Virus record (IMG/VR): IMGVR_UViG_2547132127_000012
Strand: one strand, 5' to 3'
Length of the DNA stretch: 6,836 bases
Source of the DNA: a virus
Taxonomy: Duplodnaviria; Heunggongvirae; Uroviricota; Caudoviricetes
This document shows, piece after piece, positions 1 through 6,836 of this stretch. How positions within the stretch are numbered: position 1 is the stretch's first letter; the number at the start of each line of letters is the position of its first letter. Under the pieces are notes generated by a model that saw nothing but the letters and a program-made list of their open reading frames with translations, had not been told where the DNA came from and searched no databases. Position numbers and translations under genes: made by a program.

Positions 1-819
1 ATGTGTCAGGTATTTGGTGTATCCAGGAGCGGTTATTACAACTGGGTACAGCATGAACCCTCAGACAGAAAACAAAGTGATGAGCGGCTAAAACTGGAGA
101 TTAAGGTGGCACATATCCGCACTCGCGAAACATATGGAACCCGGCGGCTCCAGACGGAGCTGGCAGAGAATGGCATCATCGTTGGTCGTGACCGACTGGC
201 ATGTCTTCGTAAGGAGCTGAGGCTACGCTGTAAGCAGAAACGCAAGTTCAGAGCGACTACGAACCCGAACCACAATCTGCCAGTTGCGCCAAATCTGCTG
301 AACCAGACGTTCGCTCCTACAGCACCAAATCAGGTCTGGGTGGCGGACCTGACGTATGTTGCCACACAGGAGGGATGGTTGTACCTCGCTGGCATCAAAG
401 ATGTTTATACGTGTGAAATTGTCGGCTACGCCATGGGAGAGCGCATGACAAAAGAGCTGACAGGTAAAGCCCTGTTTATGGCGCTCAGGAGCCAGCGCCC
501 ACCTGCCGGGCTAATCCACCACTCTGATCGAGGTTCACAGTACTGCGCATACGATTACCGGGTCATACAGGAGCAGTCTGGTCTGAAAACATCAATGTCG
601 CGTAAAGGTAACTGTTACGACAACGCTCCGATGGAAAGCTTCTGGGGAACGCTGAAAAATGAGAGCCTGAGCCACTATCGTTTTAATAACCGGGATGAAG
701 CCATCTCAGTAATACGGGAATACATTGAGATTTTCTACAATCGTCAGCGTCGTCACTCTCGTCTGGGGAATATCTCCCCGGCAGCCTTCAGGGAAAAATA
801 TCATCAGATGGCTGCTTAA
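1..819 (+). CDS. IS3-family transposase OrfB (DDE integrase-like catalytic domain), IS600-like
   Basis: 272-aa ORF identical to the OrfB of copy 2. Carries IS3-family/retroviral-integrase-like motifs ([26 protein letters not shown]). Family is established knowledge; the IS600 name is from memory of its OrfA/OrfB. Confidence 0.85.
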
Positions 820-862
820 AAAAAGAACAAATGGTAGTGTCCGCTATTGCCAGTACACCTCA
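1..862 (+). mobile_element. IS3-family insertion sequence (IS600-like), copy 1, 3' portion only (window starts inside the element, at the orfB ATG)
   Basis: Bases 1..862 are identical to 3844..4705 of the complete copy (offset 3843). Both copies end ...gtacacctca, then flanking sequence diverges. The left end and orfA lie upstream of the window. Confidence 0.85.
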
Positions 863-1789
863 GTGAAAGAAGCACCGATTGGTATCGAGGTCATCCCCGC
901 GCACGTCACTGAATATCTGAACAAGGTACTGACTGAAACCGATCATGCCAACCCTGATCCGAAAATCGTGGATATTGCCTGCGGTCGCTCCTCTGCCCCG
1001 ATGCCGCAGCGTGTAACAGAAGAAGGAAAACAGGATGATGAAGAAAAACCGCAGCCATCTGGCGCAATGGCAGATGAACAGGCAACGGCTGAAACAATGG
1101 AACCGGATGCAACTGAACATCATCAGAACACGCAGCCGCTGGATGCTCAGTCACAGGTAAATTCTGTTGATGAGAAATATCAGGAACTGCGGGAAGAACT
1201 CCATGAAGCCCGGAAAAACATTCCGCCCAAAAATCCTGTCGATGCAGACAAATTACTGGCTGCCTCTCGCGGAGAATTTGTTGAAGGGATTAGCGACCCG
1301 AATGATCCGAAATGGATTCCCGGTCATCATATCTCCTCAAATGAAGTCAAAAAAACGGAAAATGAAGTGCGACAGACTGAAGATAAACAGCACCAGAACA
1401 GCGAACCGGAGGAGGGAACACCCTGCAATCAGACTGGCGAGGATAACTGCCCTGACTGTGGCGCGGTGATGGGAGACGCAACTTATCAGGAAACTTTTGA
1501 CGAAAAAAAACCAGATGAAGCACAGGAAGAAGAGCCGAAGAAAACGGAAAAAGCTGATGATTTGTTACCGGAGAACGCTGGCAGCGATCAGCATAATGAT
1601 AGCAATAATGAAACTGGCGAAGATGAACTCAACTGGAAAAAACAGGTGTTGATTGCGGCGGTTTACGGTTTATGTGCGAATCCTGCGTGCATAGCCTATG
1701 CGCCTGCAATCCCTGACATCGCAATGATGATTGCCAACAAGCTTGAAAATTTTGGAGTGACCAGTGATGAGCGCTTACCCGATTTTTGA
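863..1789 (+). CDS. Highly acidic (D/E-rich) low-complexity protein, 3' fragment; 5' end probably removed by the IS insertion
   Basis: The frame is open from inside the IS across the junction at 862/863. The first ATG after the junction (1001) has no Shine-Dalgarno, and no plausible start exists between 863 and 1001. Long D/E/Q-rich tract, a Cys cluster (C-x8-C-x2-C, ...[15 protein letters not shown]...), hydrophobic C-terminus. Stop at 1787-1789 overlaps the next gene's start. Identity unknown; I have a vague, unverifiable impression of resemblance to the acidic central region of Rac RecE. Confidence 0.45.
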
Positions 1790-2039
1790 TCGTATTGAAG
1801 AAATGGCATGGGCTCGCCACTACCAGCAGATCGTTCGTGAAGAAAAAGAAACGGAACTGGCGGACGACCTGGAAAAAGGTCTGCCTCAGCACCTGTTTGA
1901 ATCGCTCTGCATCGACCATTTGCAACGCCACGGTGCCAATAAACAGGCAATCAGCCACGCATTTGATGATGATGTTGAGTTTCAGGAGCGCATGGCAGAA
2001 CACATCCGGTACATGGCTGAAACCATTGCCCACCACTAG
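1767..2039 (+). CDS. Hypothetical 90-aa acidic protein, translationally coupled to the upstream ORF
   Basis: GGAG at 1754-1757, 9 nt before ATG 1767. Start overlaps the upstream stop (1787-1789) by 23 nt. No motif recognised. Confidence 0.5.
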
Positions 2040-2068
2040 GTTGATATTGATTTGGAGGACTAAAATCT

Positions 2069-3166
2069 ATGGCGCTTTTTCAACGAGCAATAAACACACA
2101 GGCCTATCTAAAAGCAGGAATTATGGGGTTTGCTGGCGACGGCAAAACCTACACAGCAAGCGAACTGGCTATTGGTCTGGTAATGCTTATGCGGCAACGG
2201 GGAATTGAAGCTGGTAACCGCCCGGTAATGTTTCTGGACACAGAAACAGGCTCTGACTGGGTTAAACCCCGCTTTGATGCGGAAAATATCGAATTATTTA
2301 CGGCAAAAACCCGCTCGTTTGTTGATCTGCTTGAAGCCATTAATGAAGCGGAAAGCAGCGGTTCCGTAATGATCATCGACTCCATCAGTCACTTCTGGAC
2401 CGGATTATGCGACGAGTATGCCAGACGCCGAAACCGTAAACGAGGACTGGAATTTTCAGGCTGGGCGTGGCTCAAACAGGAGTGGCGACGCTTTACCGAT
2501 CGATTTGTTAACAGTCAGGCGCACATTATTATGTGCGGGCGTGCAGGATATGAGTATGACTTTTTCGAAGGTGATGATGGCAAACGCCAGTTGGCAAAAA
2601 CCGGTATAAAAATGAAAGCAGAAACAGAAACCGGTTATGAACCCTCCATCCTGATCCAGATGGAGAAGCAAATGAACATAGAAACCGGTCAGGTGTGGCG
2701 CACCGCCAGAATACTAAAAGATCGCTCCACCCGTATTGATGGACAGGTATTTTCAAACCCAACATTTAAAAACTTTCTTCCTCATATCGAGTTTCTTAAC
2801 CTGGGAGGTGAACACCCCGGCATCGATACCTCACGGGATAACAGTGAATTATTTGCCAACGACGGTACACCGACATGGCTAAAAGAAAAGCGTGCAAAAG
2901 AAATCGCACTTGATGAAATTATCGAGTTGCTCAACAAGCACCATGGGGGCACCAGTAACGACGCCAAACGCGCAAAAGCTGATTTGCTGGAAAAAACATT
3001 CACCTCCCGCTCATGGGAAAGAATCAAAGGTATGGACTGGCCGACAATCAAAGCTGGTCGTAATGCACTATGGATTGAACTGGAAGGCGTTGAATATGCA
3101 TTCCCGGATCCACAAACACAAAACGAAACGCAACAAGCAGGATACGATGAGAATATTCCGGTGTAA
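2069..3166 (+). CDS. RecA-fold P-loop NTPase (AAA_24/Sak4-like topology) with a ~250-aa C-terminal extension of unknown function
   Basis: GGAGG at 2054-2058, 10 nt before ATG 2069. Walker A GFAGDGKT (aa 20-27), acidic strand motif FLDTETG (aa ~55-61), Walker B VMIIDS (aa ~101-106). This Walker A / D-T-E / hhhhDS order is typical of RecA-like and AAA_24 phage ATPases, not ABC or classical AAA+. Family assignment is from motifs, unverified. Confidence 0.8.
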   Translation: MALFQRAINTQAYLKAGIMGFAGDGKTYTASELAIGLVMLMRQRGIEAGNRPVMFLDTETGSDWVKPRFDAENIELFTAKTRSFVDLLEAINEAESSGSVMIIDSISHFWTGLCDEYARRRNRKRGLEFSGWAWLKQEWRRFTDRFVNSQAHIIMCGRAGYEYDFFEGDDGKRQLAKTGIKMKAETETGYEPSILIQMEKQMNIETGQVWRTARILKDRSTRIDGQVFSNPTFKNFLPHIEFLNLGGEHPGIDTSRDNSELFANDGTPTWLKEKRAKEIALDEIIELLNKHHGGTSNDAKRAKADLLEKTFTSRSWERIKGMDWPTIKAGRNALWIELEGVEYAFPDPQTQNETQQAGYDENIPV

Positions 3167-3216
3167 AACCAAGTGCATTTTGAACACGGTTTTTGAAAAT
3201 ATTAATGGAGGTGTTC

Positions 3217-3405
3217 ATGTATAAAATTACAGCCACTATTGAAAAGGAAGGTGGTTCTCCTACCAGCTGGACAAGATATTCAAAATCTAAACTAACGAAA
3301 TCAGAATGCGAAAAAATGCTCTCAGGGAAAAAAGAAGCAGGCGTTTCCAGAGAGCAGAAAGTAAAACTGATAAATTTTAATTGCGAGAAACTTCTGTCCT
3401 CGTGA
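3217..3405 (+). CDS. Hypothetical 62-aa lysine-rich small protein (MYKITATIEKEGG...)
   Basis: GGAGG at 3207-3211, 5 nt before ATG 3217. Lies 50 nt after the ATPase stop in an AT-rich segment and ends 36 nt before the IS left end. I suspect, but cannot verify, similarity to small Rac-prophage proteins of the ydaC type. Confidence 0.5.
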   Translation: MYKITATIEKEGGSPTSWTRYSKSKLTKSECEKMLSGKKEAGVSREQKVKLINFNCEKLLSS

Positions 3406-3441
3406 GTTGCATTATATCAAAATTAGAACTTCATAGCTGAT

Positions 3442-3470
3442 TGAGATAGCCTGAGTTTAACGGACACTCC
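3442..3470 (+). repeat. IS left terminal inverted repeat (imperfect)
   Basis: Matches the reverse complement of 4677..4705 at the terminal TGAG and the internal CGGACACT block. Confidence 0.5.
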
Positions 3471-3505
3471 TTCCTGAAATAGAATGGCATCAGAAGGAGC
3501 TAATA

Positions 3506-3808
3506 ATGAGCAGAAAAACCCAACGTTACTCTAAAGAGTTCAAAGCCGAAGCTGTCAGAACGGTTCTTGAAAATCAACTTTCGATCAGTGAAGGCGCTTC
3601 CCGATTATCTCTTCCTGAAGGCACTTTAGGACAATGGGTTACCGCCGCCAGAAAAGGGCTCGGTACTCCTGGTTCCCGCACGGTGGCTGAACTGGAATCT
3701 GAAATTCTGCAACTGCGTAAGGCGTTAAATGAAGCTCGCCTTGAGCGCGATATATTAAAAAAAGCAACAGCGTATTTTGCACAGGAGTCGCTGAAAAATA
3801 CGCGTTAA
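3506..3808 (+). CDS. IS3-family transposase OrfA (helix-turn-helix DNA-binding protein with C-terminal leucine-zipper-like region)
   Basis: AGGAG at 3494-3498, 7 nt before ATG 3506. 100-aa protein; the slippery heptamer lies near its 3' end. Confidence 0.9.
   Translation: MSRKTQRYSKEFKAEAVRTVLENQLSISEGASRLSLPEGTLGQWVTAARKGLGTPGSRTVAELESEILQLRKALNEARLERDILKKATAYFAQESLKNTR
3757..3763 (+). other. Programmed -1 ribosomal frameshift slippery heptamer (A AAA AAA) producing the OrfAB fusion transposase
   Basis: AAAAAAA then G at 3757-3764. In the orfA frame it reads ttA AAA AAA Gca. A -1 slip moves codon starts from 2 mod 3 (orfA) to 1 mod 3, the orfB frame (ATG 3844). This is the standard IS3-family arrangement. 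Confidence 0.6.
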
Positions 3809-3843
3809 TCGAACAATGGCGACAACAATTTCCCATTGAAGCG

Positions 3844-4662
3844 ATGTGTCAGGTATTTGGTGTATCCAGGAGCGGTTATTACAACTGGGTACAGCATGAA
3901 CCCTCAGACAGAAAACAAAGTGATGAGCGGCTAAAACTGGAGATTAAGGTGGCACATATCCGCACTCGCGAAACATATGGAACCCGGCGGCTCCAGACGG
4001 AGCTGGCAGAGAATGGCATCATCGTTGGTCGTGACCGACTGGCATGTCTTCGTAAGGAGCTGAGGCTACGCTGTAAGCAGAAACGCAAGTTCAGAGCGAC
4101 TACGAACCCGAACCACAATCTGCCAGTTGCGCCAAATCTGCTGAACCAGACGTTCGCTCCTACAGCACCAAATCAGGTCTGGGTGGCGGACCTGACGTAT
4201 GTTGCCACACAGGAGGGATGGTTGTACCTCGCTGGCATCAAAGATGTTTATACGTGTGAAATTGTCGGCTACGCCATGGGAGAGCGCATGACAAAAGAGC
4301 TGACAGGTAAAGCCCTGTTTATGGCGCTCAGGAGCCAGCGCCCACCTGCCGGGCTAATCCACCACTCTGATCGAGGTTCACAGTACTGCGCATACGATTA
4401 CCGGGTCATACAGGAGCAGTCTGGTCTGAAAACATCAATGTCGCGTAAAGGTAACTGTTACGACAACGCTCCGATGGAAAGCTTCTGGGGAACGCTGAAA
4501 AATGAGAGCCTGAGCCACTATCGTTTTAATAACCGGGATGAAGCCATCTCAGTAATACGGGAATACATTGAGATTTTCTACAATCGTCAGCGTCGTCACT
4601 CTCGTCTGGGGAATATCTCCCCGGCAGCCTTCAGGGAAAAATATCATCAGATGGCTGCTTAA
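3844..4662 (+). CDS. IS3-family transposase OrfB (DDE catalytic domain); in vivo made mainly as OrfAB by -1 frameshift
   Basis: 272-aa ORF identical to 1..819; lies in the -1 frame relative to orfA. Confidence 0.9.
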   Translation: MCQVFGVSRSGYYNWVQHEPSDRKQSDERLKLEIKVAHIRTRETYGTRRLQTELAENGIIVGRDRLACLRKELRLRCKQKRKFRATTNPNHNLPVAPNLLNQTFAPTAPNQVWVADLTYVATQEGWLYLAGIKDVYTCEIVGYAMGERMTKELTGKALFMALRSQRPPAGLIHHSDRGSQYCAYDYRVIQEQSGLKTSMSRKGNCYDNAPMESFWGTLKNESLSHYRFNNRDEAISVIREYIEIFYNRQRRHSRLGNISPAAFREKYHQMAA

Positions 4663-4676
4663 AAAAAGAACAAATG

Positions 4677-4705
4677 GTAGTGTCCGCTATTGCCAGTACA
4701 CCTCA
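4677..4705 (+). repeat. IS right terminal inverted repeat (imperfect)
   Basis: Reverse complement aligns with 3442..3470. The same sequence ends copy 1 at 834..862. Confidence 0.5.
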
Positions 4706-4727
4706 GATTATTAAAAATCAACCACAC

Positions 4728-4756
4728 CCGCCAGTATTCTGTATATTTACTGGCGG
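4728..4756. repeat. 9-bp perfect inverted repeat (ccgccagta N11 tactggcgg) between the IS right end and xis
   Basis: 4728-4736 ccgccagta is the reverse complement of 4748-4756 tactggcgg; the 11-nt spacer is AT-rich. No downstream T-run, so not a canonical intrinsic terminator. Confidence 0.5.
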
Positions 4757-4778
4757 TCATATCGTGAGAGGTATGGCA

Positions 4779-5060
4779 ATGAATCTTGTGACACTCAAAA
4801 CGTGGGGAAAACTCAGATATCCGGATAACCCACCATCAATATCAACGCTGAGACGATGGGCAAGGAATGGAAACATTTATCCTGCACCTGCACTACACGG
4901 GAGGAGTTACAGGGTGGTTCCGGAGGCTTTCTATATCAACCCAAATAAGGTTGATACCGATATAACACACCATCAGCCTAATGGGCGACAAGGGAGAGAC
5001 AGTCCGTTAATGGAGAAGTTAAAACATGCAGCGGAAAAAATACGATCCCAATTTGCCTAG
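4779..5060 (+). CDS. xis: Excisionase (lambda Xis-like, winged-helix recombination directionality factor)
   Basis: GAGAGG at 4765-4770, 8 nt before ATG 4779. Product MNLVTLKTWGKLRYPDNPPSISTLRRWARNGNIYPAPALHGRSYRV... resembles lambda Xis (MYLTLQEWNARQRRPRSLETVRRWVRECRIFPPP...). Overlaps int by 35 nt, as in lambda xis-int. The track's longer ORF start (4674) lies inside the IS and is rejected. Confidence 0.7.
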   Translation: MNLVTLKTWGKLRYPDNPPSISTLRRWARNGNIYPAPALHGRSYRVVPEAFYINPNKVDTDITHHQPNGRQGRDSPLMEKLKHAAEKIRSQFA

Positions 5061-6102
5061 AAACTTAACATATCGAAGGAGAGACAAAGCATATTACTGG
5101 CGCAACCCTCTGACGAAAGAAGAATTTACACTAGGTAAAATTTCAAGAAGAGATGCAGTAGCGCAGGCAATTGAAGCAAATCATTATATATACAAAAACT
5201 ACTCTCCTGCTGCCCTAATTGAAAAGCTTAAAGGGGTCGACTCATTTACTATGGCAGGCTGGATTGAACGTTACAAAACGATTCTTATAAGGAGAAAAGC
5301 GTCCAGAAATACTTATAAAACTCGGGTAAATCAACTGGAGACAATAAAAGAAAAATTAGGAGGGGTTTTACTGACAGAAATAACCACTCGCCATATCGCC
5401 GAGTTTCTTGATTTGTGGATTGAAGGAGGGAAAAACACGATGGCAGGATCAATGCGTTCTGTGTTATCTGATATGTTCCGCGAAGCCATTGTTGAAGGAC
5501 GTATATCTCAAAATCCAGTAACGCCAACAAGAGCACCGAAAATAGTAGTTACAAGAGAACGGCTGAAACTAAAGACATACAACTGCATCAGGGAGGCAGC
5601 AGATCAACTTCCGGCATGGTTCCCATTAGCTATGGACTTAGCCCTTGTAACAGGACAACGTCGCGAAGACATAACGAATATGCGGTTCAGTGATATTTAT
5701 GATGATCGTCTCCACATCAGGCAAATTAAGACAGGAATGATGATTGCTATCCCCCTGTCACTCAGCCTTCCTGTCGCTGGTTTACGACTTGGTGCAGTAG
5801 TTGAACAGTGCCGCATGGTAAGTAGGGGGGATTATCTAATCAGTGCCGGGATTAGAAAAAACAGCCCTGACGGCAGCATTCACCCGGACGGCCTGACAAA
5901 GAAATTTGTCGCAGCCAGAAAATTAACAGGTATCCTGTTCAGTGAAAACCCACCAACTTTTCACGAAATCAGAAGCCTGGCTGGACGATTGTACAAAGAA
6001 ATATGTGGAGAAGAATTTGCTCAGCGTCTACTTGGCCACACATCGGAGAAGACAACAAAAATGTATCTTGATGAGAGAGAAAAAACGTACTTACTGCTCT
6101 GA
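5026..6102 (+). CDS. int: Lambda-family tyrosine integrase (site-specific recombinase)
   Basis: GGAG at 5012-5015, 10 nt before ATG. N-terminal arm-binding region ([30 protein letters not shown]) parallels lambda Int. Catalytic motifs present: [10 protein letters not shown] (Arg), [11 protein letters not shown] (His-x-x-Arg), [13 protein letters not shown] (His...Tyr nucleophile). Confidence 0.9.
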
Positions 6103-6148: not shown

Positions 6149-6180
6149 CAAAAAAGACCGGAATACAGAAATTCGAGTAA

Positions 6181-6200: not shown

Positions 6201-6233
6201 GACGTTTGCAACTAATTGATTTTAAATACAATT

Positions 6234-6267
6234 AAAAAAAGACCGAATACGATTCCTGTATTCGGTC
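6234..6267 (-). terminator. Intrinsic terminator of SdsR (10-bp perfect stem, 7-nt loop, then U7 on the minus strand)
   Basis: gaccgaatac (6241-6250) pairs with gtattcggtc (6258-6267); loop gattcct. A7 at 6234-6240 on the plus strand is U7 on the minus strand directly after the hairpin. Confidence 0.8.
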
Positions 6268-6336
6268 CAGGGAAATGGCTCTTGGGAGAGAGCCGTGCGC
6301 TAAAAGTTGGCATTAATGCAGGCTTAGTTGCCTTGC
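6235..6336 (-). ncRNA. sdsR: SdsR (RyeB) small regulatory RNA, RpoS-dependent, ~102 nt
   Basis: Minus strand reads GCAAGGCAACTAAGCCTGCATTAATGCCAACTTTTAGCGCACGGCTCTCTCCCAAGAGCCATTTCCCTGGACCGAATACAGGAATCGTATTCGGTC then a T-run, which matches my recollection of enterobacterial SdsR. Internal hairpin ggctct...agagcc, terminal terminator, sigma-S-type -10 just upstream. Confidence 0.8.
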
Positions 6337-6339
6337 CCT

Positions 6340-6375
6340 TTAAGAATAGATGACGACGCCAGGTTTTCCAGTTTG
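6340..6375 (-). promoter_or_regulatory. Sigma-S-type promoter of sdsR
   Basis: On the minus strand, -14 to -4 relative to the proposed start (6336) reads TCTATTCTTAA, close to the sigma-S extended -10 consensus TCTATACTTAA including the -13 C. No clear -35, as is usual for sigma-S promoters. Confidence 0.5.
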
Positions 6376-6494: not shown

Positions 6495-6836
6495 TTAACA
6501 GAGTTTTTCAGCTCGTTCTATAAACGGTGCCAGACTCATTTTTTCGCCGGGATTGTTAGGATCATCAATCTGAATCACCGAAATGGGTTGGGCATTGGTC
6601 TTCCCACTGGCAACTTCCTTTTGTGCGATATCGTTTAAAGGATACTGCACGAGGGTACTTGGGTTGATGACATACAAAGCATTACCCGGTCGGCAAGTCA
6701 GCATTACCTCTTCGCGATTAAACGCCCATTTGTCTTTACCCACTTCAAAACGACTCACGGTTATCACCTGTGGAGCCGCCAGCGCCGCTGCAGAACTGGT
6801 GAGTAACAGAAACGCCAGAATACTTTTTTTCATCAT
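6495..6836 (-). CDS. yebY: Small exported protein with Sec signal peptide ([20 protein letters not shown]|APQ), probably host protein YebY (DUF2511)
   Basis: 113-aa ORF with a typical n/h/c signal peptide and AxA cleavage motif. Its position next to sdsR/ryeA matches my recollection of the E. coli pphA-ryeA/sdsR-yebY neighbourhood. The ATG is at the window edge (6834-6836), so upstream signals are not visible. Confidence 0.8.

Follow-up and report, generated by a model that had tools for sequence, protein, structure and literature searches.

A single transposition of a Shigella flexneri IS600 into a rac/Qin-like lambdoid prophage, of which an IS-rearranged stump of about 4.1 kb remains today, is with a probability of about 85% what the 6,836-bp stretch of DNA analyzed here (the window) records. 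The window was 100.000% identical to GenBank acc. no. CP000266.1, which the genome paper (PMC1550401) identifies as the S. flexneri 5b strain 8401 (Sf8401) chromosome. Its surviving phage DNA, located at 863–3441 and from 4706 to about 6250, comprises a truncated recE-like gene (recE'), gam, a gene for an AAA_24 ATPase, rcbA together with the small RNA RalA, xis, int, and the attachment site attR. An earlier note on this DNA had proposed that the IS element upstream of xis leaves the prophage excision-defective. That the element cannot leave its site is borne out, and it is immobile as a phage whatever the transcription state of xis. The cause, however, is a different one: since no early promoter lies upstream and no attL occurs within 10 kb, the failure to excise is not due to a block by IS600.

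The complete IS600 copy upstream of xis

The IS element next to xis (copy 2) and its immediate flanks were annotated as follows.

3439–3441, target-site duplication GAT, left (flank inspection and empty-site alignment)
3442–4705, + strand, IS600 copy 2, complete
3506–3808, + strand, orfA of IS600 copy 2 (HTH_Tnp_1, PF01527)
3844–4662, + strand, orfB of IS600 copy 2 (rve domain, PF00665)
4706–4708, target-site duplication GAT, right (flank inspection and empty-site alignment; a single GAT in relatives)

Copy 2 aligned over 1264/1264 bp with the IS600 of S. flexneri pCP301 at 99.8% identity, and IS600 copies on other Shigella plasmids likewise matched window 3442–4705 at 99.8%. As a member of the IS3 family with a length of 1264 bp, it reaches from its left inverted repeat, beginning at 3442, to its right one, ending at 4705; it starts with TGAGATAGCC and finishes with GTACACCTCA. 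These terminal repeats are imperfect, with TGAG at the start and CTCA at the end, and comparison of the left end (TGAGATAGCC...) with the reverse-complemented right end (TGAGGTGTAC...) revealed agreement in about 19 of the 29 outermost positions. A slippery A AAA AAA G was detected at about 3757–3764, where a −1 shift would give an OrfAB product of 385 aa. With the IS3 transposase model NF033516 of NCBIfam (cutoff 160), the modelled product reached 409 bits, and the same "programmed frameshift" transposase product is found in the RefSeq annotation of relatives. Both ORFs are intact, and the element is oriented in the same direction as xis–int. Overall, copy 2 displays every sequence-level feature by which IS600 and the IS3 family were judged, namely identity, the orfA/orfB frameshift, the inverted repeats, and the 3-bp duplication. 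Compared with the IS600 reference, it has the same orfA/orfB arrangement, −1 frameshift site, imperfect TG...CA repeats, and 3-bp duplication. Nothing of substance differed; the fifth position of its left inverted repeat is A in place of G. The earlier note had placed the insertion at 3442–4708; its start is correct, whereas the IS proper stops at 4705 and position 4708 takes in the right GAT.

Because a 3-bp match of the flanks has a chance of 1/64, GAT/GAT alone could be fortuitous, and the empty site was therefore taken as the direct proof. For this purpose, the IS-less join of window 2900–3441 and 4709–5200 was used as a query, which gave a single ungapped alignment with each of five complete E. 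coli chromosomes at 97.6–98.7% identity. In these five IS-free genomes, the uninterrupted site reads ...CATAGCTGATTATTAAAAATC... with exactly one GAT, so that copy 2 arose by simple transposition, its target being the spacer of 109 bp that separates rcbA/ralA from xis, and 3 bp were duplicated. The comparison with IS-free relatives, which the earlier note had suggested as a check, thus confirmed its view of a complete IS flanked by GAT/GAT that resulted from a simple transposition and not from a recombinant junction. The idea that GAT/GAT is a coincidence and copy 2 itself a recombinant between two IS600 copies, which could draw on the 1/64 chance and on the truly recombinant nature of the neighboring copy 1 (see below), is practically refuted by the contiguity of the copy 2 flanks around that one GAT.

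Distribution of the insertion

Five further complete chromosomes matched the window across its whole length at 99.6–99.85% identity and carried the same IS, and the insertion upstream of xis was present in 6/6 complete S. flexneri-type chromosomes. The IS junctions were letter-identical in the source genome and four further complete chromosomes, while the left junction of one draft assembly differed by a few bases. All draft contigs with an identical Int or Xis either showed the IS or broke at its end, as expected from repeat-induced assembly breaks. Among 5,426 complete E. coli genomes, none carried IS600 at the xis-proximal site. Three high-coverage E. coli matches, considered as the same insertion, were rejected, as their IS600 is located in recT, i.e., at a different site. 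The xis-proximal insertion is fixed in this S. flexneri lineage and is not recent in the population sense; the former description of the transposition as recent found no support, as all six complete S. flexneri-type chromosomes have it in common.

IS600 was found repeatedly beside prophage genes, including recombination and integrase genes, among the loci retrieved, and its amplification in several STEC lineages has been described (PMC9397093). For Sf8401, the available part of the genome paper reports 278 IS elements, amounting to 6.4% of the chromosome, several IS-mediated inversions, and IS-driven rearrangements that interrupt phage sequences in Shigella (PMC1550401). The cryptic prophage remnants of S. 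flexneri described in that part of the paper resemble the present locus in being IS-bounded phage fragments, with one IS forming the junction of a large rearrangement; the remnant at sdsR/ryeA–yebY is not singled out there.

Remnant phage genes

To the left of copy 2, the following genes were identified.

863–1789, + strand, recE' (RecE family, exonuclease VIII), 3' 308 codons, cut by IS600 copy 1 (PRK09709, PHROG 607)
1767–2039, + strand, gam, host-nuclease inhibitor of the Gam family (PF06064, E 3.9e-52)
2069–3166, + strand, AAA_24 ATPase (PF13479, PHROG 1366)
3217–3405, + strand, rcbA/ydaC homolog, DUF1187 (PF06688, E 1.1e-36; aligns with RcbA of the K-12 rac prophage)
3223–3401, − strand, RalA small RNA, type I antitoxin, antisense in rcbA (Rfam RF02694)

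The product of recE' matched NCBIfam PRK09709 (exodeoxyribonuclease VIII) at profile positions 339–596 and is collinear with residues 339–646 of the uninterrupted gene in a relative (L001). In comparison with the same relative, gam is shorter by eight codons (TAG here, CAG there). For the ATPase gene, annotated as "AAA family ATPase" in relatives, a weaker match to the Sak4-like PHROG 124 (E 1.4e-08) was also detected. RalA gave a full-length match to RF02694 (216 bits; gathering score 170), in line with the K-12 annotation, where ralA sits within rcbA. The toxin gene ralR is absent, and similarity to ralR-bearing prophages starts only at about window position 3194. With gam, the AAA_24 ATPase, and rcbA/ralA on its left, the IS does lie between early-left genes and xis–int, as had been stated before.

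On the other side of copy 2, the integration module follows.

4728–4777, + strand, two predicted hairpins in the xis leader (MFE −22.9 kcal/mol, z-score −3.1)
4779–5060, + strand, xis, lambda-Xis-type excisionase of 93 aa (PF07825, E 2.6e-14; PHROG 629)
5026–6102, + strand, int, tyrosine integrase of 358 aa, intact ORF (PF00589, PF22022, PF09003; PHROG 7244, E 1e-128)

The start codon of xis, annotated as an excisionase gene in relatives, is the ATG at 4779. It agrees with the RefSeq start in a relative, and the previously noted distance of 73 bp between the IS end and xis proved correct. The xis gene lies immediately upstream of int and overlaps it by 35 nt. The lambda-type Int revealed all three domains, i.e., the arm-binding (PF09003), core-binding (PF22022), and catalytic domain (PF00589), and its protein sequence is identical in six complete genomes and occurs on many assemblies of the Shigella type. 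Its translation contains the contexts GQRRED, HEIRS, and GHT...Y, which we take to be the catalytic motifs. With both ORFs intact and these contexts kept, xis and int may, as far as can be judged from their sequence, retain residual activity. Comparison of int with a relative resulted in 12 synonymous and 10 nonsynonymous differences, which are too few and too confounded to speak on selection.

In the xis leader, predicted hairpin 1 consists of a 9-bp palindrome (CCGCCAGTA...TACTGGCGG), while predicted hairpin 2 spans the ribosome-binding site and start codon of xis. Both are undisturbed by the IS and are conserved in IS-free relatives, but not in the rac prophage of K-12.

The gene order of the left arm corresponds to that of the Rac prophage of K-12 (intR-xisR-rcbA/ralA-ralR-recT-recE), and its rcbA/ralA module is homologous to that of the window at the nucleotide level. 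This homology, however, extends only about 20 bp rightward beyond the IS target. The Xis and Int of the window are of the lambda Xis/Int type, with Xis unrelated to XisR of Rac, and the attachment sites differ as well. Moreover, ralR and recT of Rac are missing in the window, where gam and the AAA_24 ATPase gene take their place. With lambda, the window shares the overlapping xis–int pair at the distal end of a leftward early gene string, whereas the pL region is gone from this genome and relatives have no annotated N.

Attachment site and flanking chromosome

At the right edge of the phage DNA, we identified the attachment site and the adjoining chromosomal genes.

6230–6374, + strand, SraC/RyeA small RNA, 3' part of the 272-nt K-12 annotation (Rfam RF00101, 179 bits)
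6233–6264, attR core (aligned with attB of K-12 and attL of a relative)
6234–6333, − strand, SdsR/RyeB small RNA (Rfam RF00111, 118 bits)
6495–6836, − strand, yebY, chromosomal flank of the attachment site (PF10709; annotated as yebY in relatives and in K-12)

The core common to attR, attB of K-12, and attL of the intact relative is ACGATTCCTGT. In attR it overlaps the 3' (terminator) end of sdsR/RyeB and lies within SraC/RyeA. Prophage integration has a hot spot at ryeA/ryeB, as documented in PMC7380047, which summarizes Balbontin et al. 2008, and in PMC3333887. For Salmonella phage PhiW104, PMC7380047 describes an att core that likewise covers the last bases of sdsR/ryeB inside ryeA, with int adjoining attR as here; PhiW104 is, however, a different phage of a different host, and the window keeps only the attR side.

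A search for a second att core, allowing up to 5 mismatches, within 10 kb on either side of attR in six S. flexneri-type genomes resulted in no hit. Thus, the directly oriented attL/attR pair that belongs to an Int/Xis module is lacking within this distance.

Intact relatives and loss of phage genes

An IS-free version of the locus was found in E. coli FDAARGOS_943, where a prophage of about 48 kb is located between yebY and pphA. It runs from attL through ipaH3 and the genes for tail/baseplate, head, terminase, lysis, and replication to an immunity region of the DicA/YdaS-YdaT type, followed by Rha, YdaE, RecE-like, Gam, AAA_24, RcbA, Xis, Int, and attR. In such intact relatives, a long series of co-directional genes begins at the immunity region and closes with xis–int. 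An intact relative also carries other, disabling IS insertions. In addition, a deposited phage genome of 47.5 kb (PP818812.1) revealed an int with 97% identity and the same overall layout, which indicates that related phages with this integration module exist as complete genomes. An N gene was not annotated in any of the relatives.

Within 10 kb in the S. flexneri loci, the immunity region, the early-left promoter, the genes for lysis and structural proteins, and attL are all missing. Only recE', gam, the AAA_24 ATPase gene, and rcbA are located between the two IS600 copies, and pgrR', mppA, and ynaI follow beyond copy 1. Contiguous immunity/early promoter, replication, lysis, and morphogenesis regions, as in a complete prophage, do not accompany int–xis at this locus.

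The pgrR junction at IS600 copy 1

The phage DNA ends on the left at a further IS600.

1–862, + strand, IS600 copy 1, 3' 862 bp (orfB at 1–819, right end at 862), corresponding to window 3844–4705

This second, partial IS copy at the edge of the window is the real clue to the locus. Window 1–862 is identical to 3844–4705, and the two copies are co-oriented. In the source genome, copy 1 is full-length; its left flank (...CAGACGGA) lies within pgrR, and its flanking triplets (left, GGA; right, GTG) form no target duplication. To the left follow pgrR' (the C-terminal 155 codons), mppA, and ynaI with 98.9% identity to E. coli. Copy 1, located 2.6 kb upstream of copy 2, is a recombinant junction, at which recE' is joined to pgrR of the chromosome. 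Since this pgrR–IS600–recE' junction recurs in six independent assemblies, an assembly error is unlikely.

In K-12, pgrR (+), mppA (+), and ynaI (−) are located at 1.392–1.396 Mb, and pphA (−), ryeA/sdsR, and yebY (−) at 1.922–1.924 Mb; the pgrR region is 0.53 Mb away from the yebY locus and on the opposite relative strand. The yebY side of Sf8401 is collinear with K-12, while ynaI (+), mppA (−), and pgrR' (−) beside copy 1 are inverted. A single IS600-mediated inversion appears to be the simplest explanation of this junction. A single crossover by homologous recombination between two IS600 copies of opposite orientation, one in pgrR and one in the recE-like gene of the prophage, would invert about 0.53 Mb together with the left part of the prophage and would yield exactly the pgrR–IS600–recE' arrangement. 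After such an inversion, the immunity region with the early promoter and the genes for replication, lysis, and structural proteins would lie far off, as would attL, which would in addition be turned around relative to attR.

The predicted reciprocal junction (5' part of recE–IS600–5' part of pgrR) was not found by protein, pattern, or OrfA-context searches. A protein search with the N-terminal 144 aa of PgrR revealed no truncated product of the S. flexneri type. Using the N-terminal 337 aa of the RecE-like protein, we obtained a hit (P0125) on a 3.7-kb contig that stops 7 nt before the IS point; with no IS sequence on it and an identity of just 95%, this contig is uninformative on the reciprocal junction. 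A further hit of this search (P0122, 474 aa), named S. flexneri, spans the insertion point and lies on contigs of about 1.7 kb. Finally, an exact-pattern scan of a genome-contig collection detected neither the predicted reciprocal junction nor the left junction of the window itself, and as the latter is missing from that collection, its negative result for the former is uninformative. The genomic contexts of IS600 OrfA came mostly from one larger genome and included no locus of the Shigella type.

Possible effects of the insertion on xis–int

No intrinsic terminator was predicted on the xis–int (+) strand of copy 2. On this strand, two promoter-like sites were detected, a candidate promoter in the left end of the IS (3457–3485, TTAACG-17-TAGAAT) and a hybrid of a right-end −35 with a −10 in the flank (4690–4718, TTGCCA-17-AAAAAT); compared with 2.7 (sd 2.0) in shuffled sequence, two sites represent no excess. 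As the IS is co-directional, has translated ORFs, and lacks a predicted + strand terminator, a polar block of xis–int would be expected to be weak even in an intact prophage. Lambda N-modified transcription is said to read through polar IS insertions, a classical observation reportedly going back to Adhya, Gottesman and de Crombrugghe in 1974. With no N annotated in the relatives, this precedent cuts neither way.

It could be argued that IS600 inserted near xis when the prophage was still whole, lowered its excision, and by trapping it opened the way to the later IS-mediated rearrangement and decay; the mechanism of the earlier note would then hold for the past, though not for the present. The insertion was found in all related S. 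flexneri genomes examined and must be old in that lineage, and the data give no order for the two IS600 events; had the insertion near xis preceded the other event, excision may have been lowered at that time. On the other hand, no genome was found to carry the insertion in an otherwise intact prophage (0 of 5,426 complete E. coli genomes have it), and there is no evidence that xis–int of this phage type depends on read-through. The disabling IS insertions in an intact relative indicate that decay needs no such lock. In the rac prophage of K-12, xis expression is controlled by RpoS and excision is influenced by H-NS (PMC4632033). This regulation was dropped as direct evidence, since the Xis of the window is unrelated to XisR, but it speaks against this course of events to the extent that it cautions against assuming lambda rules. 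Altogether, we regard an early lock of this kind as rather unlikely.

Activation in place of a block, with IS600 supplying transcription of xis–int from a promoter of its own in the left repeat or from the hybrid promoter at the right repeat, is doubtful. The two promoter-like sites on the xis strand and the lack of a predicted + strand terminator in the IS would be compatible with it. IS3-family elements such as IS911 provide a precedent, as the circle-junction promoter makes use of an outward-facing −35 that lies in their right inverted repeat. However, such sites were no more frequent than in shuffled sequence, AAAAAT is a poor −10, and the predicted leader hairpins cover the start codon of xis.

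A block by the IS of read-through from the early promoter into xis–int of an otherwise complete lambdoid prophage, i.e., the model of the earlier note, is very improbable. Its position between early-left genes and xis–int and the long co-directional string in intact relatives would fit such a block. However, the immunity region and early promoter needed for it are gone, as the phage DNA stops 2.6 kb to the left at the pgrR junction, no attL occurs within 10 kb, and the IS is itself co-directional with xis–int, with translated ORFs and no terminator predicted on that strand. Slightly less credible still is a scenario in which the orphan but intact xis–int, unchanged across S. flexneri genomes, would be transcribed from IS600 and, by site-specific recombination of attR with an attL displaced by about 0.5 Mb and inverted, would flip a large chromosomal segment, or would be of use to incoming phages or satellites with sdsR/ryeA as their target. 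Under the preferred reading, a single transposition into a prophage of which only a stump is left, the xis-proximal IS600 seems to be functionally neutral today.

Implications for Shigella prophages

The locus represents what is already known, namely ordinary IS-driven prophage decay in Shigella, in a genome published in 2006. Were the model of the earlier note true, it would describe routine prophage domestication in a genome consisting of 6% IS elements. The case illustrates that the inference of a "locked-in" prophage from a short window can mistake the cause, and that IS600 both peppers and rearranges the prophages of Shigella. The value of the present analysis lies mainly in a correct annotation.

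Probable division of the prophage, and its relatives

IS600 copy 1 lies at the window edge (1-862) and was found in full at 4574-5837 of locus L005. This copy lacks a target duplication, its left flank being GGA and its right flank GTG, and it fuses chromosomal pgrR-mppA-ynaI, a segment that in K-12 is inverted and 0.53 Mb distant, to the truncated recE-like gene. The arrangement points to an inversion via IS600 that divided the prophage. The complete IS600 copy 2 carries A at position 5 of its left inverted repeat (window 3446; TGAGA...), where copy 1 has G. In one draft assembly (L004, 8405-8425), the left junction of copy 2 revealed G at position 5 together with a few further base changes, and these differences are possibly sequencing errors.

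In the intact relative prophage of FDAARGOS_943, the type III effector gene ipaH3 adjoins attL (L013 23721-26044), and the S. flexneri remnant is probably a leftover of an ipaH-delivering phage. The FDAARGOS_943 prophage harbors its own IS600 in the lysozyme gene and an IS1 in a tail-fiber gene; the strain itself, labelled E. coli, looks EIEC/Shigella-like. A further relative, PP818812.1, is named 'Actinobacillus phage vB_Apl-pPE4'; its integrase DNA is 97% identical to this Shigella/E. coli int and its gene set (RecE, RecT, Kil, DicA, YdaT) is rac/Qin-like. Its host assignment looks doubtful.

Orphan RalA and the edge of rac homology

One small RNA was annotated in the rcbA region (window 3194-3441):

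3223-3401, minus strand, RalA antitoxin small RNA, full-length, inside rcbA

Of the toxin gene ralR, only roughly the last 10 codons are present, and RalA is here an orphan type I antitoxin, as it likewise is in the IS-free relatives. A distance of 41 bp separates the RalA 5' end from the left end of IS600, which is upstream of it and just past a -10 box of the TGnTATAAT type. Nucleotide homology to K-12 rac, comprising the rcbA/ralA module, runs past the IS600 target site on its right-hand side for about 20 bp and then ends, and a different module with lambda-type xis-int starts, placing a mosaic joint at window position about 4709-4730.

Gam and the xis leader

In gam, a TAG stop codon at window 2037-2039 replaces CAG of the E. 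coli relative, leaving Gam 8 residues shorter. The xis leader (window 4728-4777) revealed two predicted hairpins with an MFE of -22.9 kcal/mol and a z-score of -3.1, the first being a 9-bp palindrome, CCGCCAGTA(11 nt)TACTGGCGG, and the second spanning the ribosome-binding site and start codon of xis. Since the IS-free relatives keep both, these predicted structures may serve as an operator or in the control of translation.

Attachment site and the SdsR/RyeA locus

About 75 bp into the phage side of attR, a weaker second core-like sequence, AAAAAAGACCGGAATACAG, was detected (window 6160-6178); it may represent a binding site for Int or a remnant of a previous integration event. The attachment core itself is located inside RyeA (window 6230-6374) and overlaps the SdsR terminator. 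Taking the extent of ryeA from the 272-nt K-12 annotation, its promoter and first c. 40 nt belong to the attL (pphA) side and are thus cut off from the remaining ryeA in this genome. By analogy with Salmonella PhiW104 lysogens, for which a shift in the SdsR/RyeA balance has been reported, this separation could have shifted the balance of the two small RNAs here as well.
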